Of a stretch of DNA of 64,000 nucleotides, positions 1 through 30,289 are shown piece by piece. Location: positions 1 to 64,000 of the forward strand of contig DATETY010000008.1 in assembly GCA_035283365.1 (NCBI GenBank), in the 5' to 3' direction. The notes under the pieces were generated by a model that was not told the origin of the DNA, made no database searches, and worked only from the letters and a program-made list of their open reading frames with translations. The first letter of the stretch is position 1. The number at the start of each line of letters is the position of its first letter. The position numbers and the translations under genes are program-made. The stretch comes from Thermoplasmata archaeon (GTDB lineage: Archaea > Thermoplasmatota > Thermoplasmata > RBG-16-68-12).

Positions 1-117
1 ATTCAGCCCGGAGCCTTTACTATTATGACAGGCGTGGGAGATCGCGGAGAGCCGGAGGCAGTTCGCGGTCCGGAAGGCTTATCATCGGAGCTAGCATTCA
101 CGCGCGGGGGAGAAGGA

Positions 118-429
118 ATGCCAAGATACCTTGTCCTGTACAAAGCAAATCCTTCGGTTTGGCCGACAGATCCGAAACAAGCGCTCGCTGTTTGGGAGGG
201 GACAATTGCGGGAGGAGACCATCTCCTGAAGACGGGCGCGCTTAAGGAAGTTGGCTGGTTTACCCCTCAGGAAGGCTACGCGATGTTCGAATCGGATTCC
301 AAGGAGAAGGTATTGGGAATGGTTCAGCCTTTCTTCCCCTACTACGACCAGGACATCCGAGAGATTGTATCCTGGGAGAAGGCCAAGGAAGCGCTCTTGG
401 GCAGTGCCCGTAGGGCCGCCTCGCGGTGA
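118..429 (+). CDS. hypothetical small protein (~100 aa)
   Basis: Inside ORF 25..429. ATG at 118 is preceded by GGAGAAGGA (RBS-like). Protein begins MPRYLVLYKANPSVWP. No catalytic motif recognised. Confidence 0.45.
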   Translation: MPRYLVLYKANPSVWPTDPKQALAVWEGTIAGGDHLLKTGALKEVGWFTPQEGYAMFESDSKEKVLGMVQPFFPYYDQDIREIVSWEKAKEALLGSARRAASR

Positions 430-593
430 CTGCCTCTTAGTACATCCGGCTCGCTCCTCGGAAAACGAGGAATTATGGGCCCGGCCAGATTTGGACTGGC
501 GACCTCCCGGTTATCAGCCGGGCGCTTCGGGCACCGGTCGAACGTTTACGAAGTCTAGCCCGGCATCCTGTCCATTCCCCGGTGGACCGCTGA

Positions 594-642
594 AGCCGCA
601 GGGGGGAATTGAACCCCCGACCTGCGCCCTACCAAGGCGCAG
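594..642 (-). other. intron-less 3-prime fragment of tRNA-Thr(GGU), about nt 27-73 (anticodon arm, variable loop, T-arm, acceptor 3-prime strand, discriminator)
   Basis: Reverse complement reads CTGCGCCTTGGTAGGGCGCAGGTCGGGGGTTCAATTCCCCCCTGCGGCT. It is identical to the spliced 3-prime part of the full tRNA at 1647..1738. It has no D-arm and no 5-prime acceptor strand. Confidence 0.7.
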
Positions 643-755
643 CTGATCACCGCTTCAGGGGTGCCTCGGCAGGGTCTCCATCTATCAGCGTCGCGGAGAC
701 CGTTACCATTATTAAGCGAATCCTTAAGTATTTTGGGCGCCTGACGGTTAAGCTG

Positions 756-1553
756 ATGCTTAAGGTTCAGAAGGTCCGGCTCGACGACGTGTTCGCGGCC
801 CTCGCACACCCCATTCGGCGCGCCATCATCGAGCGCCTTGCCGAAGGCGAATGCACGGTGGGCGAGTTGGCAGAACCCCACGACGTGAGCCTTCCGGCCA
901 TCTCCCAGCACCTTCGCGCGCTGGAAGAGGTCGGTCTCTTGGAGCAAACGCACACGGGGCGGGTGCGCCGATGCACCCTAAAGGCAACGCCGCTTTCCGC
1001 GGCGTTCTCGTGGATCGTGCAGTATCGCATCTTCTGGGAGGACATGCTGGACGACATCGCCGAGAAAGTGGAAGGAAGTGGAACCATGACAGCGACCAAG
1101 GGAAAGACCAAGACGACGACAGGGACGGTGCGACTGAGCCGCGTCTTCAAGGCGCCGCGCGAACGCGTGTTCAACGCATTCCTCGACCCCGACGCGTTCG
1201 CCAAGTGGAGCCCGCCGAACGGGTATTCGGCCCACGTGTACAAGTTCGACCCCAAAGTCGGGGGCACCTACCGCATGAGCTTCTCGTCCCTCGACAAGAA
1301 GGACACCCACTTATTCGGCGGCAAGTTCCTAGAGATCAAGCCTTACGAGCGACTGCGGTATACGGACAAGTTCGAAAGCGACAGCCCGGAGATGCAAGGC
1401 GAGATCATGGTCACGGTCACGTTCAAGGACGTCCGGGGTGGGACCGAGGTGAAGATCGTCCAGGCAGGACTCCCGCGGGTAATCCCCATCGAGGGGGCCA
1501 TGTTGGGCTGGAGCCAGTCGCTCGAGAACTTGGCGCGGCTCGTGGAGCTGTAG
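756..1553 (+). CDS. ArsR-family winged-helix regulator fused to an SRPBCC/AHSA1-like domain
   Basis: HTH segment HPIRRAIIERLAEGECTVGELAE...SLPAISQHLRALEEVGLL. C-terminal half reads TVRLSRVFKAPRERVFNAFLDPDAFAKW...TYRMSF (Aha1/SRPBCC-like). ATG at 756 is in frame with ORF 609..1553. The upstream part of that ORF overlaps the tRNA fragment. Confidence 0.75.
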   Translation: MLKVQKVRLDDVFAALAHPIRRAIIERLAEGECTVGELAEPHDVSLPAISQHLRALEEVGLLEQTHTGRVRRCTLKATPLSAAFSWIVQYRIFWEDMLDDIAEKVEGSGTMTATKGKTKTTTGTVRLSRVFKAPRERVFNAFLDPDAFAKWSPPNGYSAHVYKFDPKVGGTYRMSFSSLDKKDTHLFGGKFLEIKPYERLRYTDKFESDSPEMQGEIMVTVTFKDVRGGTEVKIVQAGLPRVIPIEGAMLGWSQSLENLARLVEL

Positions 1554-1646
1554 CAGAAACCCGAATCGCGTACGAAGTCCGCGCAGCTGGGCTGCGGTCA
1601 TCCTCACGGGCGGCGCCGTGGCCCCCAACGTTACGGCATGCGTGAG

Positions 1647-1738
1647 AGCCGCAGGGGGGAATTGAACCCCCGACCTGCGCCTCTTTGGCCTCTCGCGGAG
1701 GCTACCAAGGCGCCGCTCTACCCCTAAGCCACTGCGGC
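1647..1738 (-). tRNA. tRNA-Thr(GGU) with a 20-nt intron in the anticodon loop
   Basis: Reverse complement: GCCGCAG-TG-GCTT-AGGGGTA-GAGC-G-GCGCC-TTGGTAG-[CCTCCGCGAGAGGCCAAAGA]-GGCGC-AGGTC-GGGGG-TTCAATT-CCCCC-CTGCGGC-T. All stems pair. Anticodon GGT. The intron is at about 1682..1701 on the plus strand. No encoded CCA. Confidence 0.8.
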
Positions 1739-1848
1739 AGCGAACCGACCAAACCGCGGACCCGGCATAAACATTCCCCGGCGCCCGGCGGCCGCCCGCG
1801 GCTTTTTACCCCTGCGCGCGTTTCCGGACCGCTCCCCGGAGGGCACCG

Positions 1849-2883
1849 ATGGCGACGAAAGAGGGCAGGCAGCGGATTCGCAGTCCTCGCAAGGGCATCC
1901 TGAAGCGCCTCGACGAAGGACCCGTCCTCGGGGACGGCGGCTACCTGATTGAGCTCGAGAAGCGCGGCTACGTCCAGGCGGGTCCCTTCACCCCGGAGGT
2001 CGTCCTCAAGAACCCGGCGGCCCTGGGGGAGCTCCACCGGGAGTTCCTCGACGCGGGCGCGGAGGTCCTCCAGTCCCTCACGTTCTACGCGAGCAAGGAG
2101 AAGCTCGGGACGGTTGGGTACGCGGGCAAGGTGCGCGACCTGAACCGCGAGGCCGTCCGGATCGCACGCATGGCGGCGGGCGACCGCGCGCTCGTCGCAG
2201 GGAACATCAGCCTCACGTGGCTGTACGATCCGAAAGACCCGAAGTCGGCCGACCGGGTGCGGCGCGAGTTCGACGAGCAGCTCAAGGTCCAGCTCGCGGA
2301 AGGCATCGACTTCGTGATCGGGGAGACGTTCTCGTACCTCGGGGAGGCGCTCGTCGCGGTGGAGGCCGGGAAGGCGACCCGGATCCCGACGATGGTCACG
2401 ATGTGCTTCGAGAACGAGCCGAGGACCCCGGAGGGCAAGACGCCCGCCGAGTGCGCGAAGGCCCTCGTGGACGCGGGCGCGGACATCGTCGGCGTAAACT
2501 GCCTCCGGAACCCGAGGCACATGCTCCCGCTCGCGATCGAGATGCGCGAGGCCGTCGACGTCCCGATCGCGTGCCAGCCCACCGCGATCCGCACGCCGGA
2601 CGATCGCCCCGACTTCACGTCCCTCCCTCAGTTCCCCTACGAGCTCGAGGCGCTCACGCTGTCCCGCCGGGACATGGCGGACTACGCGCGCCGGGCCCTC
2701 GCGGCGGACATCCGGTTCATCGGGGCGTGCTGCGGCACGATTCCCGCGCACATCCGGGAGATGGCCCGTGCCCTGGGGAAGATCCAGCAGGAGGACCGCT
2801 CGTGGCGGATCGACTACGACCGCCCCATGTCCGGGTACGAGTACTACAAGCACACGGAGCGGCCTCCTGGCCAGGGTCCCTGA
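1849..2883 (+). CDS. homocysteine S-methyltransferase (BHMT-like Pfam S-methyl_trans family)
   Basis: GILKRLDEGPVLGDGGYLIELEKRGYVQAGPFTPEVVLKNPAALGELHREFLDAGAEVLQSLTFYASKEKL closely parallels the betaine-homocysteine methyltransferase N-terminus. GGAGGG RBS before the ATG. Confidence 0.8.
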   Translation: MATKEGRQRIRSPRKGILKRLDEGPVLGDGGYLIELEKRGYVQAGPFTPEVVLKNPAALGELHREFLDAGAEVLQSLTFYASKEKLGTVGYAGKVRDLNREAVRIARMAAGDRALVAGNISLTWLYDPKDPKSADRVRREFDEQLKVQLAEGIDFVIGETFSYLGEALVAVEAGKATRIPTMVTMCFENEPRTPEGKTPAECAKALVDAGADIVGVNCLRNPRHMLPLAIEMREAVDVPIACQPTAIRTPDDRPDFTSLPQFPYELEALTLSRRDMADYARRALAADIRFIGACCGTIPAHIREMARALGKIQQEDRSWRIDYDRPMSGYEYYKHTERPPGQGP

Positions 2884-2914
2884 CGGCGCGTCGGACCGCG
2901 GTGGGGCATCTCGC

Positions 2915-4474
2915 ATGGCCGCCTTCGACGCGATCGTGGTCGGGGGCGGGCACAACGGCCTCGTGGCCGCGGGGTACCTCGCGAAGGCGGGCCTCAAGGT
3001 CCTCGTCCTGGAGCGGCGGGGCCTCGTGGGCGGGGCGTCCACGACGGAGGAGGTGTTCCCCGGAGTGCGGTTCTCCCGCCTCGCGTATTCCGCGGGCCTC
3101 CTGCGGCCCGAGGTGATCCGGGACCTCGATCTCGCGAGGCACGGCTACGTGGCCCACCCGTTCGACCCTCAGTTCTTCCTGCCGTTCCCGGACGGCCGGT
3201 CGATCCTCCTGTGGAAAGACATGGACCGAAATCTGAAGGAATTCGCTCGTTTCTCGAAGAAGGACGCGGAAACCTACCCGAAGTACGTCGCGTTCTGGAC
3301 GGAGACGATGGAGCTGTTCGAGGCGATGGTCCTCGAGGCTCCGCCGCCCCTCGCGGACCTCCTCTCCATGTTCCAGGGCGCGGACGCGGAGGAGCTCGCG
3401 AAGCGCGTCCTGCTGCAGAGCGCGGCGGCCCTCCTCGACGAGTTCTTCGAGTCGGACGAGGTGAAGGCATCCCTCGTGAACGCGACGACGATCGGCCTGC
3501 CGGCGGGGCCCAAGACGCCGGGGACGGCCCTCATGCTCGGCCACATGCTCCTCCACGAGATCAACGGGGTCAAGCAGACGTTCGGGTACGCGATGGGCGG
3601 GATGGGCGGGATCAGCCAGGCCCTCGAGCGGTCGTGCAAGGCCCTTGGAGTGACGATCCGGACCCGCGCGGCCGTGGCCCGCATCCTCACGAGGGACGGC
3701 CGCGCGATCGGCGTCGAGCTCGAGGACGGGACCCGCCATGAAGCGCAGGCGGTCCTCTCGAACGTGGACGCGAAGACCCTGTTCCTCCGCCTCGTGGGAC
3801 CGGACGCGGTCGACCCGGAGTTCCTCGCGAAGGTCCGGCGGATCAAGGCGACCGGGGTCGTGACGAAAGTGAACGCCCACCTGAGGGAACCGCCCGAGTT
3901 CACCGCGCGGCCCGGGAAGGGGGTGCAGCCGCACCACCGAGGCTACATGGACATCTGCCCGTCCGTGGACTACCTCGAGCGCGCGTGGGATGACGCGAAG
4001 TGGGGCGAGCCCTCGCGGCAGCCGTTCCTCGACTGCGTGATGCACTCCGTGACGGACCCGAGCCTGTGCCCGCCCGGGACGCACACCCTGTCGATCTACG
4101 CGCAGTACTTCCCGTACGCGCTCGCGCGGGGGACCTGGGACGACCGGAAGGCGGAGGCGGGCGACCGGATCCTCGACACCCTCGCGGAGTACGCCCCGAA
4201 CCTCCGGCGGGCCGTGATCGACCACGAGGTCATCACGCCCCTCGACATGGAGCGGGAGTGGGGCCTCCCGGGCGGCTGCATCTACCAGACCGACATGACG
4301 CCAGACCAGCTGTTCTCCCTGCGCCCGGTCCCGGGATGGTCCGGGTACCGTACCCCGATCCCGGGCCTGTACATCTGCGGGAGCAGCGCGCACCCCGGAG
4401 GCGGCGTGACGGGGGCGCCGGGCCGCAACGCGGCGATGGTCGCCCTCGAGGACCTCGCGCGGTCGAAGCCATGA
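2915..4474 (+). CDS. FAD/NAD(P)-dependent oxidoreductase, phytoene-desaturase (CrtI)-like family
   Basis: N-terminal Rossmann motif MAAFDAIVVGGGHNGLVAAGYLAKAGLKVLVLE. About 520 aa. ATG at 2915 within ORF 2768..4474. Confidence 0.75.
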   Translation: MAAFDAIVVGGGHNGLVAAGYLAKAGLKVLVLERRGLVGGASTTEEVFPGVRFSRLAYSAGLLRPEVIRDLDLARHGYVAHPFDPQFFLPFPDGRSILLWKDMDRNLKEFARFSKKDAETYPKYVAFWTETMELFEAMVLEAPPPLADLLSMFQGADAEELAKRVLLQSAAALLDEFFESDEVKASLVNATTIGLPAGPKTPGTALMLGHMLLHEINGVKQTFGYAMGGMGGISQALERSCKALGVTIRTRAAVARILTRDGRAIGVELEDGTRHEAQAVLSNVDAKTLFLRLVGPDAVDPEFLAKVRRIKATGVVTKVNAHLREPPEFTARPGKGVQPHHRGYMDICPSVDYLERAWDDAKWGEPSRQPFLDCVMHSVTDPSLCPPGTHTLSIYAQYFPYALARGTWDDRKAEAGDRILDTLAEYAPNLRRAVIDHEVITPLDMEREWGLPGGCIYQTDMTPDQLFSLRPVPGWSGYRTPIPGLYICGSSAHPGGGVTGAPGRNAAMVALEDLARSKP

Positions 4475-4525
4475 TCCCGGGCGGACCGCTGAACCATTAA
4501 GTAAAGCGCCGGACTTCCAGACCCC

Positions 4526-6433
4526 ATGAAGACCGCCCTCTCCTCCGCGGACCTCCGGGCCCTCGTCGCGGAGTGGCAGGGCCTCCTCGGCGGGCACGTG
4601 GACAAGGCGTACCAGCGCGAGGACGAGGTGATCCTGCGGATCAACCTGGCAGGCGGAGGTCGGACGGAACTGTACTTCAAGGCGGGCCGCTGGCTGTGCC
4701 TCCACGAGGTCGAGACGAAGCCCCAGGAGCCGCCGCCGTTCGCCCAGACCCTGCGCCGCCTCCTGGACAACGCCCGCCTCACGGCCGTCGAGCAGCGCGG
4801 GTTCGACCGGATCGCCGTGTTCAGCGTCGAGCGGGGCGGCGAGCCCCTCCGGGTCGTCTACGAGGTGTTCGGCAAAGGCAACCTGGTCGTCGTGAAGGGG
4901 GATGCGACCGTCGCCTGCCTCAGCCCCCAGACGTACGGGGACCGGGCCGTCCGGCCCGGGGAGCCGTACGCGTTCCCCGCGACGGGACCCGACCCCGTCG
5001 AGCTGGACCGCCGCGGGTTCACGGAGGCCGTGCGCGGCGCGAAGGGCCAGGTCGTCCGGGTCCTCGCGAGCGTCCTGAGCCTCGGGGGGCAGTACGCGGA
5101 GGAGCTGTGCCTCCGCGCGGGCCTGCCCAAGGAGACGAAGGTGAAGGACCTCGCGGACGCCCAGATCGACGCGTTGTACACGGCCCTCAACAACCTCGTC
5201 GTCTCGATCGACTCGGAGCGGAGGCCGGCCGTGATCCACGTGGATGGCCACCCAATCGACGCGGCCCCCATCGAGCTGGCCCAGTACGCTCACCTGGAGG
5301 CCCGGCCGTTCCCGACATTCAACGAGGCCCTCTCCCAGTACATCGCGACCGCGCCTCCCGAGGAGGCCCCCGCGGACGAGGTCGCCTCGAAGTACGAGCG
5401 ACGCACCGCGCAGCAGGAGGAGTCCCTCCGCGCCCTCCGCGAGGAGGCGACCCGCCTGGAAGCCCAGGCCGTGTTCCTGTACGCGCACTACGTGCCGTTC
5501 GACGAGTTCCTCCGGGCCGTGCGGGAGGGGCAGGAACCGCCTCCCCACGCGCAGGTCAAGGCGATCGACCGGAAGGCCCGCACGGTCACGTTCGGCATCG
5601 CGGACTTCGACTCGGTCACCCTGGAGTACGAGAAGGACGTGACCGCGAACGCCCAGGCCCTGTACGACCGCCGGAGGGAGGCCCAGCTCAAGGCCGAGCG
5701 GGTCCAGGAGGCCATCGAGGCGACCCGCCGGGAGATGGAAGCGGCCCGCAGGAAGGCGATCAAGGTGGCCAAGAAGCCCCGCGTGCGCCCGACGAAGGCG
5801 ATGTGGTTCGACGCGTACCGCTGGACCCTCTCCTCGGAGGGACACCTGATCCTCGGGGGCCGCGACGCGCGATCGAACGACCAGCTCGTGAAGAAGCACC
5901 TCAAGGAGGGGGACCGGTACGCCCACGCGGACGTCCACGGGGCCCCCTCGACCGTCGTGAAGGAGGGGTCCCGGGCCGGGGAGGCGACCCTGCGGGAGGC
6001 GTGCGAATTCGCCCTCGCGTACAGCAAGGCCTGGTCCGCCGGGCTCGCGGGCGGCAGCGCGTACTGGGTCCTCCCCGAACAGGTCTCCAAGCAGGCCGAG
6101 TCGGGCGAGTTCCTCCCTCGCGGGGCCTTCGTGATCCGCGGGAAGCGGAACTACCTACACGACCTGCCGGTCCGCCTCGCGGTCGGCGAGGTCGAGATCG
6201 AGGGTCACCGGAAGGTGATGGGAGGCCCCCCGTCCGCCGTGGCGGCCCGCGCGGCGAGGCACGTGGTCTTGGGGCCCGGGAAGGGGGATCGGGAGGCCCT
6301 CGCGAAGCGCCTCGCCGCGGCCTTCGACGTGCCCATCGAGGAGGTCGGCCGGGTCCTCCCGCCGGGCGGCTGCGAGGTCCTCGAGACGAAGGACGTCCCT
6401 CTCCCGGTGGGCCATCCGACGTCAAGTTCATAA
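4526..6433 (+). CDS. NFACT-family protein (Rqc2/NEMF/FbpA homolog; archaeal RqcH-like)
   Basis: NFACT-N-like N-terminus MKTALSSADLRALVAEWQGLLGGHVDKAYQ. DUF814/NFACT-R segment WFDAYRWTLSSEGHLILGGRDARSNDQLVKKHLKEGDRYAHADVHGAPSTVVK. Confidence 0.8.
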   Translation: MKTALSSADLRALVAEWQGLLGGHVDKAYQREDEVILRINLAGGGRTELYFKAGRWLCLHEVETKPQEPPPFAQTLRRLLDNARLTAVEQRGFDRIAVFSVERGGEPLRVVYEVFGKGNLVVVKGDATVACLSPQTYGDRAVRPGEPYAFPATGPDPVELDRRGFTEAVRGAKGQVVRVLASVLSLGGQYAEELCLRAGLPKETKVKDLADAQIDALYTALNNLVVSIDSERRPAVIHVDGHPIDAAPIELAQYAHLEARPFPTFNEALSQYIATAPPEEAPADEVASKYERRTAQQEESLRALREEATRLEAQAVFLYAHYVPFDEFLRAVREGQEPPPHAQVKAIDRKARTVTFGIADFDSVTLEYEKDVTANAQALYDRRREAQLKAERVQEAIEATRREMEAARRKAIKVAKKPRVRPTKAMWFDAYRWTLSSEGHLILGGRDARSNDQLVKKHLKEGDRYAHADVHGAPSTVVKEGSRAGEATLREACEFALAYSKAWSAGLAGGSAYWVLPEQVSKQAESGEFLPRGAFVIRGKRNYLHDLPVRLAVGEVEIEGHRKVMGGPPSAVAARAARHVVLGPGKGDREALAKRLAAAFDVPIEEVGRVLPPGGCEVLETKDVPLPVGHPTSSS

Positions 6434-6463
6434 GATACGCGCGGGTCCTCGAGGAGTCCAAGG

Positions 6464-7357
6464 GTGTGTGAGGACATCGGCGCCTACCTGCGGCTCTTCC
6501 TCCTGTTCGCGGCGCTCACCGCGATCTTCGTCGGCTTCGGCTGGGTCATCGGCACGGTCTGGTTCGGGGACTGGGTCGGCGGCGCGATCCTGTTCCTCGC
6601 CCTCGCGGGAGCCATGAACGCGTTCGCCTACTTCTTCTCCGACAAGATCGTCCTCTGGTCGTACCGCGCGAAGGTCGTCTCGGAGGCCGAGGCGCCCGAG
6701 CTCCATCGAATCGTCCGGCAGGTCGCCGCCCTCGCGAACGTGCCCGTCCCGTCCGTCGCGATCGTGCCGACGGACACCCCGAACGCGTTCGCGACGGGGC
6801 GCAGCCCTCGGCACGCGGTCGTGGCCGTCACCCGGGGCATCCTGGACCTCCTCACGGAGGACGAGCTCCGGGGGGTCCTGGCCCACGAGGTCTCCCACGT
6901 CGGGAACCGGGACATCCTCGTGATGTCCGTCGCCGCGACGATCGCGGGCGCGATCAGCTTCATGGCGCGGATGTTCTGGTGGAACAGCCTGTTCGGGGGA
7001 TCCCGGAACCGCGAGGGGAACGGGGCCCAGGCGCTCCTGGCCGTCGTCGGGATGGTCCTCGCGCCCATCGCGGCGTTCGCGGTCCAGATGGCGATCTCCC
7101 GGAGCCGCGAGTACAAGGCGGACCACACGGGCGCGACGACGATCGGGAATCCGCTCGCCCTCGCCTCGGCCCTCCAGAAGCTCGAAGCCGCGAACCGGCG
7201 CAAGCCGCTCCGGTTCGGGAGCCCCGCGTCCCAGGGTCTGTTCATCGTGAACCCGTTCTCCGACAACGGCTTCGTGCGCCTGTTCCGGAGCCACCCGCCC
7301 ATCCAGGAGCGGGTCCGGCGGCTCGAGGCCCTCGCGGCCGGCATCGGGCTGCGGTGA
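6464..7357 (+). CDS. htpX: membrane zinc metalloprotease HtpX (M48)
   Basis: Two N-terminal TM helices, then HEVSHVGNRD (HExxH) and a later TM pair. GTG start at 6464 after GAGGAG. Confidence 0.85.
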   Translation: MCEDIGAYLRLFLLFAALTAIFVGFGWVIGTVWFGDWVGGAILFLALAGAMNAFAYFFSDKIVLWSYRAKVVSEAEAPELHRIVRQVAALANVPVPSVAIVPTDTPNAFATGRSPRHAVVAVTRGILDLLTEDELRGVLAHEVSHVGNRDILVMSVAATIAGAISFMARMFWWNSLFGGSRNREGNGAQALLAVVGMVLAPIAAFAVQMAISRSREYKADHTGATTIGNPLALASALQKLEAANRRKPLRFGSPASQGLFIVNPFSDNGFVRLFRSHPPIQERVRRLEALAAGIGLR

Positions 7358-7367
7358 ACCGACCGAG

Positions 7368-7745
7368 TCAGCCGAACTCATGCCCGACGTGGCGCCCGTG
7401 CCTGGCGTCCAGATCCCGGATCTGCTCGCGCACCTCGAGGTTGGGTTCGAGGACCTCGAACTCCTCGAGGTACGCCCGGTCCTTGTACAGGACCGTCGTG
7501 CGGCCGTTCTTCGACGTGCGCACCATCAAATTGAGGTCGCCTCCGCCCTCCGGGCCCTCGTACAGCGTGTAGAAGCCGAGGAAGTGCCCGACGACCTCCT
7601 CGAAGCCGTGCTGGGGGTAGAAGAACCGCAACCGCACCCGGTCGCCGGGGAAGATGTCGAGGCGGTCCATGAGCTTGTCGTCGAGGATCCCTGCCTCCTT
7701 CAGGATGCGCCGCTCCTCCGCGACCGCATCCCGGTTCTCCACCAT
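7368..7745 (-). CDS. hypothetical protein (125 aa), downstream of glnA
   Basis: Clean ORF on the glnA strand. Protein MVENRDAVAEERRILKEAGILDD.... No motif recognised. Confidence 0.4.
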   Translation of the reverse strand: MVENRDAVAEERRILKEAGILDDKLMDRLDIFPGDRVRLRFFYPQHGFEEVVGHFLGFYTLYEGPEGGGDLNLMVRTSKNGRTTVLYKDRAYLEEFEVLEPNLEVREQIRDLDARHGRHVGHEFG

Positions 7746-7868
7746 GGACGGCTGGGAGGGCGCGCCCGGCCTTAAACCCGCCGTCCGGCCTCGCGGCCCG
7801 GCTCAGGCCGAGGCCCGAAACAGGCCAGTGCAGCGTCCCGCGCCGGCCGATGGGATGGGTGACCGTGG

Positions 7869-9323
7869 TCACGCATCCATGTACCGGTAGAACTCGTACG
7901 GGGAGGGCCGCAGCGAGGTCTGCAGGTGCTCGTCCAGCTTGAGCTCCTCGTATTTCTCGAGGAGGTCCTGCGTGAACACGGTCTTGAGGAACATGTAGTC
8001 CGTCTGGAGGTGCTCGACGGACTCCTTGAGGGACCCGGGAAGCTCGCGGACCCCGTACTCCTTCCGCTTGGCGGCGCTCAGGTGGTACAGGTCTTCGTCG
8101 ACCGGGTCGCCGGGGTCGAGCTTCCGCTTCACCCCGTCCAGGCCGGCGCACAGCATCGCGGCGAACGACAGGTACGGATTGCACGCCGGGTCCGGCGTGC
8201 GGTACTCGATCCGCTTCGCGGCTTCGATCCCCCGGTAGTACATGGGGATCCGGATGTTCGCGGACCGGTTCCGCTTCGACCAGGCGATGAACACGGGGGC
8301 CTCGTACCCGGGCACGAGCCGGCGGTACGAGTTCGTCGTCGGGTTCGTGAAGGCGCACAGGGCCCGCGCGTGCTCCATGAGCCCGCCGATGTAGTACCGG
8401 CACGTCTGGCTGACCTCCGCGTACTCGTCGTCCGCGTCGTACATCACGTTCTTGCCCTTCGTCCACAAGCTCTGGTGGACGTGCATCCCGCTCGCGTTAT
8501 CCCCGAAAATCGGCTTGGGCATGAACGTCGCGAGCATGTCCATCTTGTGGGCGACCATCTTCATCACGTAACGGTACGTGACGACGTTGTCCGCCATGGG
8601 GACGAGCTCGTCGTACCGCATGTCGATCTCGCACTGCCCCGCGGTCGCGACCTCATGGTGGTGCGCGTCCAGCGTCAGGCCGAAGTGGTCCATCAGGACG
8701 CGGCACGCTTCGTTCCGGAAGTCCTGGAGGCTGTCCACGGGCGGGGCCGGGTAGTAGCCCTCCTTGAACCGAATCGGGAAGTTCTTGCCCCCACTCTCGG
8801 ACCACGGCGCCTCGCGGGACAGGATCTCGTACCCCGCGCCGGACCACGGGTTCCGCACGTGGTCCGGCGTGGGGGTGAGCCGGATCCCGTCGAACACGAA
8901 GAACTCGATCTCCGGCCCCCAGTACGTCGTGTCGTAGCCCAAGCCCGCGGCGAACTCGGCAGCCTTCTGCGCGATGAACCGCGAGTCCCGGGTGAAGCGT
9001 TCGTGGGACCCGCCCTCGTACACGTCGACGAACATCCGGGCCGTCCGGTGGTCTCCCTCGTACCATGGAAGGACGGCGAGCGTGGACGGGTCCGGGTTCA
9101 TCACCATGTCCGACTCGTGGATCTCCTTGAAACCCTTGATCGACGAGCCGTCCAGCTTGCCCACGCCGCGCTTGAAGTCCTCCGCCGTGAGGGACGTCGA
9201 GGGGATCGTGATGTGCTGCAGCGCGCCGAGCAGGTCGACGAACTGCAGGTCGATCCACCGAATGCCCTCCGACTGGATGCGCTTCATGACCGCGTCGACA
9301 CCGTTGCCTCTCTTCGTCTTCAT
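7869..9323 (-). CDS. glnA: glutamine synthetase type I
   Basis: MKTKRGNGVDAVMKRIQSEGIRWIDLQFVDLLG.... Conserved GS regions (NPYLSFAAMLCAGLDG, FIAWSKRNRSANIRIP). ATG at 9323 is preceded by GGGAGGATCTCG. Confidence 0.9.
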   Translation of the reverse strand: MKTKRGNGVDAVMKRIQSEGIRWIDLQFVDLLGALQHITIPSTSLTAEDFKRGVGKLDGSSIKGFKEIHESDMVMNPDPSTLAVLPWYEGDHRTARMFVDVYEGGSHERFTRDSRFIAQKAAEFAAGLGYDTTYWGPEIEFFVFDGIRLTPTPDHVRNPWSGAGYEILSREAPWSESGGKNFPIRFKEGYYPAPPVDSLQDFRNEACRVLMDHFGLTLDAHHHEVATAGQCEIDMRYDELVPMADNVVTYRYVMKMVAHKMDMLATFMPKPIFGDNASGMHVHQSLWTKGKNVMYDADDEYAEVSQTCRYYIGGLMEHARALCAFTNPTTNSYRRLVPGYEAPVFIAWSKRNRSANIRIPMYYRGIEAAKRIEYRTPDPACNPYLSFAAMLCAGLDGVKRKLDPGDPVDEDLYHLSAAKRKEYGVRELPGSLKESVEHLQTDYMFLKTVFTQDLLEKYEELKLDEHLQTSLRPSPYEFYRYMDA

Positions 9324-9384
9324 CGAGATCCTCCCTGGAACCGACTCGTGCCGTCTCAGGACGGTCTGCAGGGCCGTCCGCCTC

Positions 9385-9470
9385 CACAGGATTTTGGTGT
9401 ACATACTTAAAGGTTGTCGGTCCAGAACCATACAAATGATTGAAAACTTGATATGTTACCGAGACAATGT
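9385..9470. promoter_or_regulatory. AT-rich divergent control region between glnA and lrp
   Basis: Locally AT-rich: ggattttggtgtacatacttaaaggttgtcggtccagaaccatacaaatgattgaaaacttgatatgttacc. It sits in an otherwise GC-rich genome between divergent starts. TATA-like and palindromic A/T elements are present. Confidence 0.5.
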
Positions 9471-9565
9471 CCACCCCGCCCCGAGGGGCCTCCGTCCGGC
9501 TGGCGAACCGCCCGAGCGGGGGCGCAAGCGGCTTAAGGGATGACCCGATGCGCGGCGAGGCGACG

Positions 9566-10024
9566 ATGACGGCGTCCGTGAAGCTCGACGAGCTCGACCT
9601 CGAGATCCTGAGGCTGCTCAACGCGGACGCGCGCAAGTCGTTCCGGGACATCGCGAAGGACGTGAAGGCGAGCATCTCGACCGTCTCGAACCGGATCCGG
9701 CGGCTCGAGGCGGAAGGCGTGGTCCTCGGCTACGCGCCCCTCATCGACGACGCGAAGCTCGGGTACGACGTCCTCGCGGTCGTCGGGGTGAAGATCCACA
9801 AGGGGAAGCTGCTCGACGTCCAGCGGCGGATTGCGCGGGACGACCGAGTGACCCACGTGTACGACATCACAGGAGAGTGGGACTCGATCGTCGTCGTCCG
9901 GCTCAAGAACACGCGGGAGCTCGATGGGTTCATCAAACGGCTCGGGTCCATGGAGTACGTCGAGAGCACGTACACCCAGGTCGTCCTGAACGTCGTGAAG
10001 GAGGAACGCCGGGTCGTCCTGTGA
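9566..10024 (+). CDS. lrp: Lrp/AsnC-family transcriptional regulator
   Basis: MTASVKLDELDLEILRLLNADARKSFRDIAKDVKASISTVSNRIRRLEAEGVV (HTH) plus a C-terminal RAM domain. Divergent from glnA. Confidence 0.85.
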   Translation: MTASVKLDELDLEILRLLNADARKSFRDIAKDVKASISTVSNRIRRLEAEGVVLGYAPLIDDAKLGYDVLAVVGVKIHKGKLLDVQRRIARDDRVTHVYDITGEWDSIVVVRLKNTRELDGFIKRLGSMEYVESTYTQVVLNVVKEERRVVL

Positions 10025-10084
10025 CGCGGTCCGGCTTTCCAACATAACGTTTATCCACGTTCCCCGGCTTATCCACGGATAAGG

Positions 10085-10627
10085 GTGGAGGGGACTGTGG
10101 GAGACCTCCTCAGCTTCAATCCGGATCGGGACCTCGCATTCGACTCGGACCGCGAGCTCGGGTTCGAGCCGAACCGCCCGCTCCTCTTCGATTCAGGGCG
10201 CTCCCTGAACTTCCTGCCGTCGCGCGACCTGGGGTTCGGCCGACGGGGCGTCGTGTTCCGCGGCTACGTGTGCCCGATCTGCGGCGCCCTGGCGACGGAG
10301 GACGCGCCGAAGTGCTCGGAGTGCGGGGCCGTGTTCGAGGCGCCTCCCCGGGCGCCGGGCCCGTCCGTGCCGACCGCAGCGGAACTGCCTGCGCCGCGGG
10401 CTCCCCGAGGGCCGGCCCCGACGTCCGCGGCGTCCCCAGGGTCCATCGAGGCTCGGACCTCCTCGACGGGCAAGTTCTGCGCGTTCTGCGGGGCGCGGCT
10501 CACCCCGGCGGACGGGTTCTGCTGGAACTGCGGGGCCCGCTCCGTGGGCCCGGCGGAGGCGGTCCGCCTCCCGGGCGCGAAGAAGAATCCCGTGACGCGC
10601 GAGTGGCGCGGCCCGGAGGAGCGGTGA
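10085..10627 (+). CDS. double zinc-ribbon protein
   Basis: Two CxxC...CxxC units (CPICGA...CSECGA; CAFCGA...CWNCGA). Low-complexity Pro/Ala linker. GTG start. Confidence 0.5.
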   Translation: MEGTVGDLLSFNPDRDLAFDSDRELGFEPNRPLLFDSGRSLNFLPSRDLGFGRRGVVFRGYVCPICGALATEDAPKCSECGAVFEAPPRAPGPSVPTAAELPAPRAPRGPAPTSAASPGSIEARTSSTGKFCAFCGARLTPADGFCWNCGARSVGPAEAVRLPGAKKNPVTREWRGPEER

Positions 10628-10631
10628 TCCG

Positions 10632-11174
10632 ATGGCGGTCGAGCTGTTTGGGGTCACGATGAGCGTCTACGCGCTCATCATGATCCTCTTCTTCATCTTC
10701 CTCCTCGCGGTCCTCATCCTCGGAGATGTGGGGGACTTCTTCGACATCGGGGGCGACCTGGACACGGACGTCGACACGGGTCTGAGCCCGATCAGCCTGC
10801 CCGTGGTCGGGGTGTTCGGCACGGCCTTCGGCGGGTACGGGACGATCTTCGAGGGCCTCGAGTACGGATCGCTCCTGACGCCACTCCTGGCGGCCGTCCT
10901 GGCGACTGCGACGGCCGGTGGTTCGTGGGCCCTCATGTACAACTTCTTCGTGAAGACGCAGGCGGAGACCCGCGTCGACCTAGCCCGCGTCGTCGGCGAG
11001 CGAGGGCAGGTGCTCATCCCGATTCAGCCGGGCCATGCCGGCCAGATCGTCGTCGTCACGGAGGCCCGAGGGAGGACCCTCCTGCAGGCCGTCGCGGACG
11101 AACCGATCGGGACGGACGAGGCCATCGTGGTCGATTCGATCGTTGGAGATTCGGTGAAAGTTCGGAAAGCGTGA
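10632..11174 (+). CDS. NfeD-like membrane protein (short form, OB-fold C-terminus)
   Basis: N-terminal TM helices, then GQIVVVTEARGRTLLQAVADEPIGTDEAIVVDSIVGDSVKV. Immediately upstream of a flotillin gene, which is the usual operon partner. Confidence 0.7.
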   Translation: MAVELFGVTMSVYALIMILFFIFLLAVLILGDVGDFFDIGGDLDTDVDTGLSPISLPVVGVFGTAFGGYGTIFEGLEYGSLLTPLLAAVLATATAGGSWALMYNFFVKTQAETRVDLARVVGERGQVLIPIQPGHAGQIVVVTEARGRTLLQAVADEPIGTDEAIVVDSIVGDSVKVRKA

Positions 11175-11186
11175 GGGGGGAGTGCA

Positions 11187-12668
11187 ATGGCCGAAGTATT
11201 CGGAATGGACACGGGTGTCGTCGTATTGGTGATCTTCGCCGTGGTCTTCATCGCGATCGGAATCGCGGCGAGCCGCTACAAGAAGGTGCCGCCGAACATG
11301 GCGATGGTCGTGTACGGGAAGCGCCAGCGCGGCACGGGAGGTCGCGGCTACCGGGTCATCTCGGGAGGCGCGAAGGTGATCGTCCCGATCGTCGAGGCGG
11401 TCGAGTGGCTCCGGCTCGACGTGCGGACCCTGGACCTGGCGGTCCCGGACATCGTGACGGACGTGAAGCGGTCCGGCGCGAAGATCAACATCAAGGCGGT
11501 CGCGCAGGTCAAAGTGTCCTCGGACGAGGCGACCCTGAACACGGCGGCCGAGAACCTGCTCGGGAAGACGGAGCAGGCGGTCAACGAGATCGCCCTGAAG
11601 ACCCTCGAGGGCCACGTCCGTGGCGTGTGCGCGACTCTCACGGTCGAGGAGGTCAACAGCGACCGCGACGCGATCGCGTCGAAGATCCTCGGGATGGCGG
11701 GGAACGATCTGCGGAACATGGGGATCGACATCCGGTCGTTCGTGATCAAGGAGATCGAGGACGCGCAGGGCTACCTGAATGCCCTCGGGGTGAAGCGGAC
11801 CGAGGAGGTCAAGCGGGACGCGCGCATGGGCAAGGCGGACGCGAACCGGGCCGCGACGATCGCGGAGGCCCAGGCGGCCCAGCAGGCGGAGAAGGCGAAC
11901 GCGGAAGCCGAGGCCGCCGTCGCGGTGTACCACCGGGACCGGGACATCATCAAGCAGCAGTCCGAGACCCAGGTCGAGCTCGAGCGAGCGAACAGGGAGA
12001 TCGCGTTCCAGCTACAGACCGCGAAGCGCCAGCAAGAGCTCATCGTGGAGCAGAAGAAGATCGACATCCGCGCGAAGGAGCAGGAGGTCCTCGTCCAACA
12101 GCAGGAGGTCCGGCGCCGGGAGCAGGAGCAAATCGCGGCCCAGGTCGTCCCAGCGAAGACCCAGGCGGACGCGATGGCCCAGCTTGCGGACGGGGAGAAG
12201 CGGAAGCTCATCCTCACCGCGGAAGGAGAGAAGGAACGCGCGATCCTCGTCGCGGAGGGCGAGCGGGAGAGGCTCGCGCGGACCGCGATGGGCGAGGCCG
12301 AGCGGATCCGCCAGGAAGGCACCGCGGAAGCCGACGTGATCCGGCTCAAGGGCGAGTCCGAGGCGTACGCGATCAAGGCGAAGGGGCTCGCGGAGGCTGA
12401 GGCGATGCGGGCGAAGGCCCTCGCGTGGGAGCAGTACGGCAAGGCGGCCGTCACGCAGCTCATCGTCGAGAAGCTCCCGGAGATCGTCGCGAACGCGGCG
12501 AGGTCCCTCGAATCGACCCAGAAGCTCATCATCATGGGCGAACGGGGGCCGTCCCAGCTCGTCGGGAGCGTCGTGGACATCGCGGCGACGGCGCCCGCCC
12601 TCGTGAAGGCCCTCACGGGGATGGACCTGTCCGAGCTCGCGGGGAAGCTGAAGGACATCTCGAAGTGA
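11187..12668 (+). CDS. flotillin-like SPFH/Band-7 protein
   Basis: N-terminal TM, SPFH domain, long Ala/Glu/Gln-rich coiled-coil region (AQAAQQAEKANAEAEAAVAVYHRDRDIIKQQSETQVELERANREIAFQ). Confidence 0.85.
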   Translation: MAEVFGMDTGVVVLVIFAVVFIAIGIAASRYKKVPPNMAMVVYGKRQRGTGGRGYRVISGGAKVIVPIVEAVEWLRLDVRTLDLAVPDIVTDVKRSGAKINIKAVAQVKVSSDEATLNTAAENLLGKTEQAVNEIALKTLEGHVRGVCATLTVEEVNSDRDAIASKILGMAGNDLRNMGIDIRSFVIKEIEDAQGYLNALGVKRTEEVKRDARMGKADANRAATIAEAQAAQQAEKANAEAEAAVAVYHRDRDIIKQQSETQVELERANREIAFQLQTAKRQQELIVEQKKIDIRAKEQEVLVQQQEVRRREQEQIAAQVVPAKTQADAMAQLADGEKRKLILTAEGEKERAILVAEGERERLARTAMGEAERIRQEGTAEADVIRLKGESEAYAIKAKGLAEAEAMRAKALAWEQYGKAAVTQLIVEKLPEIVANAARSLESTQKLIIMGERGPSQLVGSVVDIAATAPALVKALTGMDLSELAGKLKDISK

Positions 12669-12839
12669 GGCGGTGGCGGGCCCCGAGGTCGGGTGGTCCG
12701 ACGGGAAGGACCCCGACCTCCTCATCGACGTGTGGTCGACCGCGGCGCTGCTCGAGGCCGTGATCGCGGCCCTGCTCGAGGAGCCGGAGAACCTGAGGCG
12801 CGCCCTCGAGGTCCTCTCGCGTGGCCCGCCCGGAGGCGG

Positions 12840-13076
12840 CTAGAGATTCATCACGACGACGTCGCGCACGGACCGCATCCCCTGGAAGGGCAGCACGAGG
12901 CGACCCTGCGGGTCCACCTTGAAGCTCTTCGCGGAGACGTTCTCTGCCGGCATCACGAGGACGTCGGAGAGGCGGCCGTTTTTCGTGTCGACGATGAAGT
13001 TCTCGATCGTCCCGAGGATCGCGCCGTCGTTCGTCATCACGGTCTTGCCTCGGAGTTCGGTGGCAAACTTCTTCAT
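12840..13076 (-). CDS. PRC-barrel domain protein
   Basis: 78 aa. MKKFATELRGKTVMTNDGAILGTIENFIVDTKNGRLSDVLV matches the small archaeal PRC-barrel pattern. Confidence 0.65.
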   Translation of the reverse strand: MKKFATELRGKTVMTNDGAILGTIENFIVDTKNGRLSDVLVMPAENVSAKSFKVDPQGRLVLPFQGMRSVRDVVVMNL

Positions 13077-13198
13077 CCCATCACCTGCGTCGGTGTGGGC
13101 CCTTCGCGGCCCCGCCGCGTCGGGATCCCATCCCTTCGTCCGACAGACATCTGACGCGCGCTATATGAACGTTCCGAAGGACGCTACGGACCCGCCGC

Positions 13199-15430
13199 TC
13201 AGCGGTAGTACTGGAGGGGCTCCTCCTTCTTCCGGCGCACGGCGCCCCGCTCGAGGCGCTTCCCGACCTCCTCGTAGAACTTGACCGTGTCCTCGTCGAG
13301 GCTCGGCCGGACCGACTTCAGGGCCTCCTGGAAGTGGGTCATGGAGACCTTCTTCGCCTTCCGGTTCTCGCGCAGGGCGATCATCGCGGCCTCCCGGCAC
13401 AGCCCTTCGATGTCTGCCCCCGTGTAGCCGTCCAGCTCGACCGCGAGTTCCTCGAGGTCGACCCCGTCGAGGGGCATCGTCTTCGTGTGGACCTTCAGGA
13501 TCTCGAGGCGGGCCGCCTTGTCCGGGGCCGGCACGAGGAGGATCCGGTCGAAACGGCCCGACCGCAGCAGGGCCGGGTCGATCATGTCGGGCCGGTTCGT
13601 CGCCCCGATCACGACGACCCCCTCGAGGGACTCGAGGCCGTCCATCGACGTGAGGAGCTGGTTCACGACGCGCTCGCTGACGCCGCTGTCGTTGTCCATC
13701 CCGCGGCGGTGCGCGATCGCATCGAGCTCGTCGAGGAACACGATGCACGGCGCGACCTGTTTGGCCTTCTTGAAGATCATCCGGACGGCCTTCTCGGACT
13801 CCCCGACCCACTTGGACATGACCTCGGGGCCCTTGATCGAGATGAAGTTCGCCTCGGACTCCGTCGCCACGGCCTTCGCGAGGAGCGTCTTCCCGGACCC
13901 GGGCGGGCCGGAGAGGAGGATCCCGCGAGGCGGTCGAATCCCCATCCGCTGGAACGACTCGGGGTCCTTGAGAGGCATCTCGACGGCCTCGCGCATCTTG
14001 AGCTTGATGTCCTCGAGCCCGCCCACGTCCGTCCAGGCGACGCGGGGGATCTCCACGAGGACCTCGCGCATCGCGCTCGGCTCGACTTCCTTGAGGGCCT
14101 GCTTGAAGTCGTCCGGGGTGACCCGCATCTTCTCGAGCGTCTCGGGCGGGATCGGCTTCTCGAGGTCGAGCTCGGGCAGGTGTCGCCGGAGGGTCTTCAT
14201 CGCGGCCTCCCGGGCCAGGGCGGCGAGGTCGGCCCCAACGAAGCCGTGGGTCACGTTCGCGAGATAGGCGAGGAGGGCCGCGCGGTCCTCCTCCGCGCCC
14301 TCGATGGGCATTCCGCGGGTGTGGATGAGGAGGATCTCCTCGCGCCCGTCGCGGTCCGGCACTCCGATCTCGATCTCCCGGTCGAACCGGCCGGGCCGGC
14401 GGAGGGCCGGATCGATCGCCTCATCCCGGTTCGTCGCGCCGATCACGATGACTTGACCGCGGCCCGACAGCCCGTCCATCAGGGTGAGGAGCTGGGCGAC
14501 CACGCGGCGTTCGACCTCGCCGGTCACCTCCTCGCGCTTCGGAGCGATCGAGTCGAGTTCGTCGATGAACAGGACGGACGGGGCGTTCTTCTGCGCCTCC
14601 TCGAACTTCTCGCGCAGCCGCTCCTCGCTCTGCCCGTAGTACTTGGACATGATCTCCGGGCCCTGGATCGAATAGAAGTTCGCCCCCGCCTCGTTCGCGA
14701 CGGCCTTCGCGATCAGGGTCTTGCCCGTCCCGGGCGGGCCGTACAGGAGGACCCCTTTGGGCGGGTCGATGCCGAGCCGCTCGAACAGCTCCGCGTGCTT
14801 GAGGGGGAGCTCGATCATCTCGCGGACCTTCATGAGCTCCTCCTTGAGACCGCCGATGTCCTCGTACGTGACCGTCGGCGTGAGGACCTCGCCCTCCCGG
14901 ACGGGCTCCTCCTTCATCTCGATGATCGAGTCGTCATGGATCTGGACGATCCCCTTCGGCTGGGTCTTGATGACCATGAACGGGAGCGCGCCGCCCATGA
15001 GGGCGATCCCGGGCACGATCACGACGTCGCCCTTGTTCACGGGGCGCTTCAGGAGCCCCCGCTTCACGAAATTCTCGATCCCCTGGCCGAACGAAATCTT
15101 GTGCCCCTCGCTGATGATCGGCGCGATCGTCACGCGCTCCGCGGGGAACACCTCCGCCTTGCGGACCTCGACCTTGTCCCCCAGGCTCACGCCCACGTTG
15201 CGGCGGACGAGGCCGTCGATCCGGATGATCCCCTTCCCCTCATCCTCCTGCATCACGCGGAACAGCTTCGCGGCCGTGGACTTCTTCCCGACGATCTCGA
15301 TGATCTCGCCTACGTCGACGCCTAGGGCGACCCGCGTCTTCGTGTCGACGCGCGCGCGGCCGAGCCCCACATCGGACTGCGGCGCTTCCGCGACGCGCAA
15401 AACGACCCTCTCGGGCACGAGGGCTTTCAA
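13199..15430 (-). CDS. cdc48: Cdc48/VCP-type AAA+ ATPase (two AAA domains)
   Basis: Cdc48 N-domain [36 protein letters not shown]. Two Walker A motifs GPPGTGKT and [11 protein letters not shown] regions. Start is TTG at 15430 or GTG at 15418. Confidence 0.9.
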
Positions 15431-30022: not shown

Positions 30023-30087
30023 TGGGCACGCCCCTCCGCTCGCCCGGCGCATCTTTATTACGAGCCTCCCGATTCGTTGCGAGCCAT

Positions 30088-30172
30088 GCGTGGGTTGCCA
30101 AGCTTGGACAAAGGCGCAGGGCTCAGGATCCTGTCCCGCAGGGGTTCGCAGGTTCAAATCCTGCCCCACGCA
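30088..30172 (+). tRNA. tRNA-Leu(CAG), class II with a long variable arm
   Basis: GCGTGGG/CCCACGC acceptor. Anticodon stem CAGGG/TCCTG with loop CTCAGGA. Variable arm of about 14 nt. T-arm GCAGG-TTCAAAT-CCTGC. Discriminator A. Confidence 0.8.
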
Positions 30173-30289
30173 TCCTTGCCCCGGGCCGCGCGCCCGCCAG
30201 GCCGCCCGACGCCTGACGTACGAAACGGAACATCGGTCGAACCCCGGGCACCGCGATCCTGCCGGCTGCTTGACCCCTCCGCTGTCGCC

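Follow-up and report, generated by a model that had tools for sequence, protein, structure and literature searches.

The tRNA-Thr(GGU) gene of an uncultured Thermoplasmata archaeon as the probable attachment site of tandemly stacked integrative elements

The window analysed here is a stretch of 64,000 nucleotides from a Thermoplasmata archaeon (GenBank assembly GCA_035283365.1, contig DATETY010000008.1, positions 1 to 64,000), and the subject of the analysis is its intron-bearing tRNA-Thr(GGU) gene together with a partial, intronless copy of that gene, called fragment A, that lies about 1 kb away. The DNA downstream of the gene is not one integration scar; it is a tandem array of three units arranged head to tail, each ending in a copy of the 3' part of the tRNA. 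We consider it highly probable that the tRNA-Thr(GGU) gene serves as the chromosomal attachment (att) site of a family of integrative elements that stack in tandem. The repeats, their boundaries, the array, the polymorphisms among relatives and the compositional break were all observed. The first-pass annotation of the window, made from its letters alone, had read the pair of tRNA sequences as the footprint of an integration, and this is supported by the direct repeat downstream of the gene, its boundary at tRNA positions 25-27, the low GC content and the existence of occupied and empty versions of the site.

The locus was recovered on metagenome contigs by an exact-protein look-up (related loci are designated by L numbers); for five genes of the window such look-ups gave no match. 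Locus L011, taken from a 79-kb contig, is 99.7% identical to the window, whose position 1 corresponds to L011 position 9246. The locus could be extended beyond the left end of the window by 9.2 kb in L011 and by 3.2 kb in L001, and together these two contigs revealed three tRNA-Thr 3' copies plus a fourth, degenerate one that bound a low-GC island of about 4.5 kb downstream of the tRNA-Thr. In L011 the segment at ~6.4-10.9 kb, which has the degenerate copy and the tRNA as its exact ends, has a GC content of 54-63%, compared with 66-75% on both sides; within the window the values are 55-63% from position 1 to ~1600 and ~70% to the right of the tRNA. The sole content between the two repeats seen in the window is, as had been stated at first, the gene of an ArsR-type regulator with an SRPBCC domain (Pfam AHSA1, 1e-27; HTH_20, 1.5e-13; HTH_5, 2.5e-12). 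The earlier suggestion that the element had either decayed or lay on the other side turned out to be partly right in each half, as the ArsR unit holds no recombination genes and two more units follow leftward. The integrase genes for which the first-pass annotation had proposed an inspection upstream of position 1 were found neither in the island nor in the 9 kb leftward in L011; the two further units lie there instead.

The resident tRNA gene was confirmed by the Rfam tRNA model, which matched it with 57.1 bits (E=7e-11) and a 22-nt insertion in the anticodon loop. ARAGORN called the same segment tRNA-Pro, a mislabel that arises because archaeal introns are not modelled by this program. The bulge-helix-bulge (BHB) motif, read from the sequence by eye, consists of the central helix U32UGG35/CCAA, the inner helix CCUC/GAGG and two 3-nt bulges, U36 A37|G and A G|A38. 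When folded to minimum free energy, the precursor does not show the BHB, and the canonical structure was instead written by hand; this cloverleaf with a canonical BHB evaluates to -42.4 kcal/mol. Because of the BHB geometry, the intron is placed as 20 nt at 37/38, and the mature tRNA is predicted to carry A38 in the loop UUGGUAA after its removal. Among 122 related loci, 89 possess an intronless gene in eight versions, all 89 with A38, and the commonest version (56 loci) matches the two joined exons of the resident gene, A38 included. The remaining 33 loci carry intron-bearing genes in 19 versions with introns of 20-30 nt; all of the 15 intron variants checked in detail are located at 37/38 and followed by A38, and the sequence of the inner helix mostly differs. 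The gene thus presents the features of a BHB-spliced archaeal tRNA, namely an interrupted cloverleaf, two 3-nt bulges 4 bp apart and a product equal to the intronless orthologue, and the intron-containing tRNA-Thr(GGU) that had been proposed from the letters alone was upheld by the Rfam score, the canonical hBHBh' motif and the intronless relatives.

Fragment A matches the resident gene in two blocks: 594-628 is identical to 1647-1681 over 35 nt (tRNA 39-73), and 629-644 agrees with 1702-1717 at 15 of 16 positions. Two such matches were obtained in none of 100 shuffled sequences. Compared with the spliced tRNA, the fragment is the same at 27-37 and 39-73 and differs at two positions, with G38 where the mature tRNA has A and U26 where the gene has G. 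The description of the fragment as an exact, intron-free copy of spliced tRNA nucleotides 27-73 therefore needs amending: the extent and the absence of the intron stand, the exactness does not. Because G38 and U26 differ, fragment A appears to be an intronless 3' part of a tRNA-Thr rather than a copy of the resident spliced tRNA. Both nucleotides recur in the fragments of other units, and they look element-derived rather than taken from the resident tRNA. With 28.2 bits the fragment falls below the Rfam gathering score of 29, three of its seven acceptor pairs are broken, and it is predicted not to be a tRNA gene. Fragment A is also present in L001, L003, L011, L012 and L013. The earlier idea that the incoming site had matched an intron-free allele gained ground from the intronless alleles in 89 of the 122 clade loci and from the U26 and G38 shared with the fragments of other units.

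Table 1. Features of the tRNA-Thr(GGU) locus; positions refer to the window unless another locus is named.
Feature	Position	Strand	Remarks
Resident tRNA-Thr(GGU) gene	1647..1738	-	5' exon 1703-1738, intron 1683-1702, 3' exon 1647-1682
Intron	1683..1702	-	20 nt; canonical archaeal; tRNA 37/38; hBHBh' motif
Unit 1	645..1646		~1.0 kb, 60-63% GC; single gene; between resident tRNA and fragment A
ArsR-family HTH + AHSA1/SRPBCC protein	756..1553	+	265 aa; sole gene of unit 1
Fragment A	594..644	-	tRNA-Thr 27-73 (594-640) without intron; U26 and AGC at 641-644; unit 1/unit 2 junction, attR-type
Unit 2, right-hand 593 nt	1..593		~0.69 kb between att copies; continues left to fragment B
tRNA-Ile(GAU) 3' part (~22-73)	476..526	-	Inside unit 2; aligns to complete tRNA-Ile(GAU) of L006 from ~22
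103-aa gene	118..429	+	Cargo of unit 2
Fragment B, third tRNA-Thr 3' copy	-144..-92 (L011 9101-9153)		92-144 nt left of window start
Unit 3	Just left of window		2.7 kb; 573-aa primase-polymerase-like gene + 276-aa gene; ends at degenerate fourth copy
573-aa protein of unit 3	-1905..-184 (L011 7341-9062)	-
Candidate tyrosine recombinase, 474-499 aa	L121 4584-6014	-
	L173 8333-9757	+
	L073 3062-4531	-
	L051 713-2167	-

The comparison was widened to about 150 related Thermoplasmata loci, at least 120 of them from the metagenome scan; the scan of species genomes assigned the locus to metagenome-assembled genomes of uncultured Thermoplasmata from soil and groundwater, relatives of 'RBG_16_67_27'. 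The tRNA-Thr(GGU) site is an integration hotspot across this clade. From two to six tRNA-Thr copies are present in 34 of the 120 metagenome loci listed (in L122 the tRNA is followed by five fragments), with a spacing of 0.59-8.3 kb, many copies being less than 1 kb apart. The fragments belong to 78 distinct contexts and are followed by 143 distinct 3' flanks. In none of the 167 related loci does a fragment stand upstream of the complete gene; it is always downstream and in the same orientation. For 67 independent fragments, the mismatch to the tRNA is ~75% up to position 24, 28-30% at 25-26 and below 18% from 27 on, falling to 0-7% at 39-73; position 38 is the most variable in the loop (10 of 67 fragments). 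A direct repeat of the 3' part with a fixed 5' boundary thus lies downstream of a complete gene, and the sharp boundary at 25-27, common to all, argues for a defined recombination site and not for arbitrary homology. Likewise, fragment B matches the mature tRNA from position 25 on, A38 included. Some fragments (L004 143-196, L119 and L122) have the loop GUCGUAA with the anticodon CGU and AT-rich arms, as if they came from a tRNA-Thr(CGU)-type site. The open reading frame (ORF) directly after the last fragment of L122 was discarded as a spurious Arg/Pro-rich frame.

Occupied and empty versions of the site were found among the relatives. Loci L003, L006, L009, L012 and L013 are without unit 3 and have a single hybrid site in its place, in flanks that share 97-99% identity with L011. 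Where the site is occupied, the intact T-arm goes with unit 3 and the degenerate T-arm with the distal flank, which places the exchange point 5' of tRNA position ~49. For unit 1 the empty version is known only across lineages: in L002, L004, L005, L007 and L010, which represent another lineage (the NFACT gene is 75% identical in nucleotides and 73% in amino acids), unit 1 is absent and a complete, intronless tRNA-Thr adjoins unit 2 directly. The empty site that the first-pass annotation had thought relatives might offer was accordingly found in nearly identical surroundings for unit 3, and for unit 1 across lineages only. Both lineages share unit 2 at 98.5% identity over its 788 bp, counted from one att copy to the other, and they share nothing outside it. 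Given this identity against about 75% in the NFACT gene, exactly one unit, unit 2, appears to have moved recently between the lineages. Its neighbours are of at least four kinds on the proximal side and of several on the distal side, and its att-to-att transfer shows that remnants are still exchangeable.

The tRNA-like core is accompanied by conserved motifs on both sides. The upstream arm, GTAGTA...TCGAAAT...ATTCG...GGCCAGCA, stops 12 nt before position 26. Of 77 fragment contexts, 17 have the motif GCCAG at a distance of 17-18 nt upstream of position 26, and of 143 flanks, 32 have CTGGC (as CT-N4-5-CTGGC) at 6-7 nt after position 73, each against a whole-window background of 2-3%. GCCAGCA and TGCTGGC form an inverted repeat, ~75 nt apart, that encloses the core and may bind the recombinase or an accessory protein. 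The upstream arm and the CTGGC motif flank att copies in L002, L055, L096, L121, L131 and others. The possibility that the arm encodes the N-terminus of a protein ('MLARNEW.DFD..YY') was rejected, as nothing in the frame of the motif is open for more than 54 aa and in-frame stops occur in L145 and L157; the arm is a non-coding DNA motif. Both arm motifs are kept by only three of 48 distinct units, all of them large (2.5-8.3 kb) and one of them integrase-bearing, and for this reason most of the small units look like deletion remnants.

A candidate for the enzyme was found in larger units at the tRNA-Thr of related genomes. The ORF is present in L121, L073, L051/L174 and L173, with remnants in L041 and L164. 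In L121 the candidate lies within an 8.3-kb unit that extends from the tRNA to a fragment and has both arm motifs; the ORF is intact and 2.5 kb away from the nearest att copy. In L173 it belongs to the distal unit of a three-unit array behind an intron-bearing tRNA-Thr, where the order over positions 1-13792 is the intron-bearing tRNA-Thr, a unit, a fragment, a unit, a full-length intronless tRNA-Thr (7174-7246), the integrase unit and a fragment. This array ends with the flank CTATTGCTGGCTGGGGCC, which also follows the complete tRNA-Thr on other contigs (e.g., L033 and L116). In both L121 and L173 the candidate is followed by a radical-SAM gene and a gene of 361-371 aa with no assigned function. 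The family is small, comprising 23 proteins that are all at least 71% identical. A phmmer search against PDB gave a single match, to the integrase 3nkh (E=1.9), over the HxxR...Y box. The structural model is poor, with a predicted local distance difference test (pLDDT) score of 55; the top 25 Foldseek matches are nonetheless all tyrosine recombinases, among them lambda Int, XerA and Cre. We regard the protein as a probable, very divergent tyrosine recombinase. No homologue of it occurs in the window. By Pfam, no integrase family was recognised in 111 ORFs downstream of tRNA-Thr in the species genomes, nor in selected recurrent ORFs of the metagenome loci.

What we infer from these data is which enzyme acted, in which direction each event went and where exactly the exchange took place. 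The attachment site of the elements would be an intronless copy of tRNA ~27-73. Integration would rebuild a complete tRNA on the proximal side and leave a partial 3' copy on the distal side, so that the array would have the resident tRNA as its attL-type end. As further elements entered the gene or a fragment left by an earlier event, the units would be stacked head to tail, and the present stack would read as the ArsR-AHSA1 unit, then the 103-aa gene with its tRNA-Ile scar, then the 2.7-kb primase-polymerase unit and last the degenerate fragment. In the fragment at 594-644 the 5' part with U26 and G38 would come from the incoming element, the 3' part being common to both partners. The recombinase was most likely the divergent tyrosine recombinase of the larger units described above, and the units of the window may have lost it or never had one; their movement or deletion would consequently depend on action in trans or on homologous recombination between the repeats.

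The position of the intron bears on the exchange point. Intron-bearing resident genes with intronless fragments behind them are found in the window and in L173, L050, L157 and L041. If the gene already had its intron at the time of integration, the exchange point would lie 3' of position 38, and both U26 and G38 of fragment A would then be on the element side; combined with the T-arm evidence, the exchange point would fall within tRNA 39-48, provided that the intron predates the units. Alternatively, the exchange would have taken place in the anticodon loop, in which case the intron must be a later arrival. The stem dyad GCGCC/GGCGC and the identity from position 27 would suggest such an exchange, for which bacterial integrases, as treated by Williams in 2002, reportedly offer an analogy. 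The intron is found inside the fragment in four distinct contexts (L029, L071, L077 and L113), and introns therefore do sometimes travel with att copies, as proposed by Sugahara et al. (PMC3293823). A fragment lies within 2.5 kb in two of nine intron-bearing and in eight of 39 intronless loci, and in this crude count of low power the intron has no protective effect.

Several observations weigh against the attachment-site reading. No integrase was found in units 1-3, in the 9 kb leftward in L011 or in the annotated part of the window, which comprises all but ~36 kb (11.5-27 kb and 43-64 kb); the gene expected within an insert is thus missing from the window's own units, and its candidate resides in larger units at tRNA-Thr elsewhere. 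The candidate itself has no Pfam match and was seen in few loci only, and its Foldseek matches are marginal (E of 1e-3 or worse, TM scores of 0.2-0.37). One or both arm motifs are lacking in 45 of the 48 units. Moreover, unit 1 has no isogenic empty counterpart; it is present on each of the five contigs with this intron-bearing tRNA. Unit 1 could have been passed on vertically for a long time instead of having arrived recently, because homologues of the ArsR-AHSA1 gene occur near tRNA-Thr in many species; at least 12 other contigs have such a homologue, with 82-89% amino acid identity, in their tRNA-Thr locus.

Among the other explanations, an integron-like platform is the most probable, although we consider it unlikely. 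The small units would then be genuine cassettes without an integrase, with the tRNA-like end in the role of attC and the recombinase encoded elsewhere. The units of 0.54-2.6 kb with one or two genes fit this well, as do the integron-like cargo (VapBC, AbiEii, OsmC, glyoxalase, SRPBCC and small regulators), the swap of unit 2 between lineages as an exact att-to-att block and the absence of a recurrent integrase from 111 + 34 ORF families adjoining the site. In its full form, an archaeal gene-capture platform in which an undescribed, divergent tyrosine recombinase encoded elsewhere excises sub-kilobase cassettes, exchanges them between species and re-inserts them, the idea is no more probable, and the corollary that the resident intron lies outside the exchange point, where it neither blocks the exchange nor is moved by it, is just as doubtful. 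The two arm motifs occur together only in the three large units and not in the small ones, gene orientation is mixed, the integrase remnants in the arrays of L041 and L164 point to decay, and no array-associated recombinase gene stands at a fixed position. The likeness to integrons extends to arrays of one-gene units, a repeated recombination site, toxin-antitoxin and stress-related cargo and units devoid of a recombinase; the differences are that here no intI-like gene adjoins the array, the repeats are 3' parts of a tRNA rather than attC hairpins, orientation is mixed and many units are remnants. No recombinase adjoined any of the arrays examined.

Slightly less probable still is an exchange without integrase, in which the 47-51-bp tRNA copies serve as homology arms for host homologous recombination after DNA uptake; a site-specific enzyme would, with the same low probability, be needed for the first event only, if at all. 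The near-perfect identity at 39-73 in all copies is what this explanation predicts, the block of unit 2 ends exactly within the repeats on both sides, and the hybrid site of L003 is the expected product of a crossover between two copies. It leaves unexplained the sharp 25-27 boundary common to otherwise unrelated units and the conserved arm motifs outside the homology, and the complete units contain integrase-like genes. An ancestral local duplication of the 3' half without any mobile element is very improbable: the ArsR-AHSA1 gene is often a neighbour of tRNA-Thr across the clade, as a duplication would have it, and the 78 fragment contexts, the presence/absence polymorphism, the compositional break and the occurrence of a unit in different genomes contradict it. 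The readings of fragment A as the 3' half of a split tRNA gene or as a reverse-transcribed mature tRNA (a complementary DNA copy), which could appeal to the missing intron and to ARAGORN's call of a 69-nt tRNA-Thr, were rejected after a search of the window and a reading of the sequence, since the fragment scores below the Rfam threshold with its acceptor pairs broken, starts at 26/27, which is no described split site, lacks CCA, differs from the mature tRNA at G38 and U26, and coexists with a complete gene, the window offering no other 5' half (complementarity to the leader does not exceed 11 nt, which is at chance level); of all explanations they have the least to recommend them.

Judged from sequence, the locus therefore appears to be neither an integron, nor an insertion of the split-integrase type known from Sulfolobus spindle-shaped viruses (SSV), nor a split tRNA. 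An attP inside the integrase ORF, as in the SSV type, was not found: the candidate of L121 is intact, and no long ORF starts from the conserved arm; on the opposite strand the only frame read by hand has a stop within the T-loop. With the att core as query (34-mer and 25-mer), the viral contigs scanned gave no match, and no free virus or plasmid bearing the site is known. The attachment-site reading is in keeping with what is established for archaea, whose tRNA-targeted integration and gene capture were reportedly treated by She et al. in 2001. tRNA genes act as att sites in archaea, with arrays formed by site reuse and with integrase loss (PMC8371274, PMC6563490). Tandem integration at tRNA genes by archaeal tyrosine recombinases with later loss of the integrase ('gene capture') was reviewed by Badel et al. 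2021 (PMC8371274), and in Thaumarchaeota integration next to intron-containing tRNA genes was reported in 10 of 39 cases (Krupovic et al. 2019, PMC6563490). The present locus shares with these arrays the 3' direct repeats, site reuse, integrase loss and intron-containing tRNA targets; it differs from them in its host, an uncultured Thermoplasmata clade, and in the mostly tiny units (0.54-2.6 kb), the candidate integrase without a Pfam match and the arm motifs.

The closest single precedent is the heterogeneity of the tRNA-Thr(GGU) locus of Caldiarchaeum subterraneum described by Sugahara et al. 2012 (PMC3293823), who proposed a link between mobile elements and tRNA introns. In both cases an intron-bearing tRNA-Thr(GGU) gene is accompanied by a fragment 1-2 kb off, with mobile DNA between them and variation within the population. 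In Caldiarchaeum, however, the fragment is a 5' one, a recombinase is encoded in the insert and the gain of the intron was credited to the element (PMC3293823), whereas the fragments of the present locus derive from the 3' side of the tRNA and mostly lack an intron, and the intron of the resident gene, at 37/38, is polymorphic across the clade. The units also resemble certain bacterial elements in being flanked by att copies and having no recombination module. Bacterial cis-mobilizable elements (CIMEs) are such att-flanked units without a recombination module of their own, which arise when tandemly integrated elements decay and may be mobilised in trans. They differ from the present units in being bacterial, linked to conjugative elements and usually much larger, and they are not known from archaea. 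A related review is available (PMC5704250). Specific to the present case are the host clade, the small units, the arm motifs and two protein families that domain libraries do not recognise.

The scar itself was to be expected, as tRNA integration, tandem arrays and integrase loss are textbook features of archaeal mobile elements. The comparison shows a very active hotspot in a clade of uncultured Thermoplasmata whose mobile elements appear undescribed, with a cargo rich in toxin-antitoxin, stress-response, regulator and RNA-repair genes. Intron-bearing and intronless att alleles coexist in close populations, with arrays behind both, and this coexistence offers a natural test bed for the questions whether tRNA introns shield genes from integration and whether elements carry introns between genes. 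The locus also draws attention to two protein families that current domain libraries miss, one of candidate recombinases and one of primase-polymerase fusions.

The cargo of the units includes toxin-antitoxin genes (VapBC and MarR+AbiEii pairs), OsmC, glyoxalase/PhnB-like and SRPBCC proteins, NmrA, ADH and RibD_C enzymes, ArsR regulators, Pnkp-Hen1 RNA repair genes and radical-SAM enzymes. A Pnkp-Hen1 pair occupies positions 6259-10286 of L121, in the 8.3-kb unit (PNKP_ligase, E=1.6e-179; Hen1_L, E=1.8e-111).

The 573-aa protein of unit 3 gave no sequence match in Pfam, PHROG or PDB. Its model (pLDDT 82) has an N-terminal domain with the fold of archaeo-eukaryotic primases (AEP) and LigD polymerases and a C-terminal alkaline-phosphatase-like domain; four cysteines are conserved. 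Considered as a possible recombinase, it was rejected because of these two domains, and the model points to a replication-type protein and not an integrase. The 276-aa protein of the same unit, checked as another possible recombinase, gave no domain match. Homologues of the 573-aa protein with 83% identity follow the tRNA-Thr directly in five other loci, and unannotated members of the family are also present in Methanofollis formosanus, Methanoregula and Asgard metagenome-assembled genomes. In L170, a 3.8-kb insert with a 572-aa primase-polymerase homologue, a DUF6036 protein and a 336-aa protein lies between two direct copies of a 200-nt sequence (7716-7915 and 11539-11738, 97% identical) that represents the 3' end of a Fer4/CCG-domain gene. 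As this insert sits in a protein-coding gene, the element family of the 573-aa protein integrates at more than one kind of site.

The exact 103-aa protein of unit 2 was found on 14 metagenome contigs in at least four different neighbourhoods; it has no significant match in Pfam or PHROG. The tRNA-Ile part in the same unit, which like fragment B had escaped the first-pass annotation, scores 36.9 bits with Rfam (476-534, minus strand), the D-arm being missing. In L006 a complete tRNA-Ile(GAU) at 1398-1472 adjoins the 103-aa gene and is followed by unrelated genes. The tRNA-Ile in unit 2 may represent a second attachment site, a rearrangement between a fragment and a true tRNA-Ile, or an assembly chimera in L006. 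Farther to the right in the window, ARAGORN identified a tRNA-Leu(CAG) gene of 89 nt at 30087-30175 on the plus strand.

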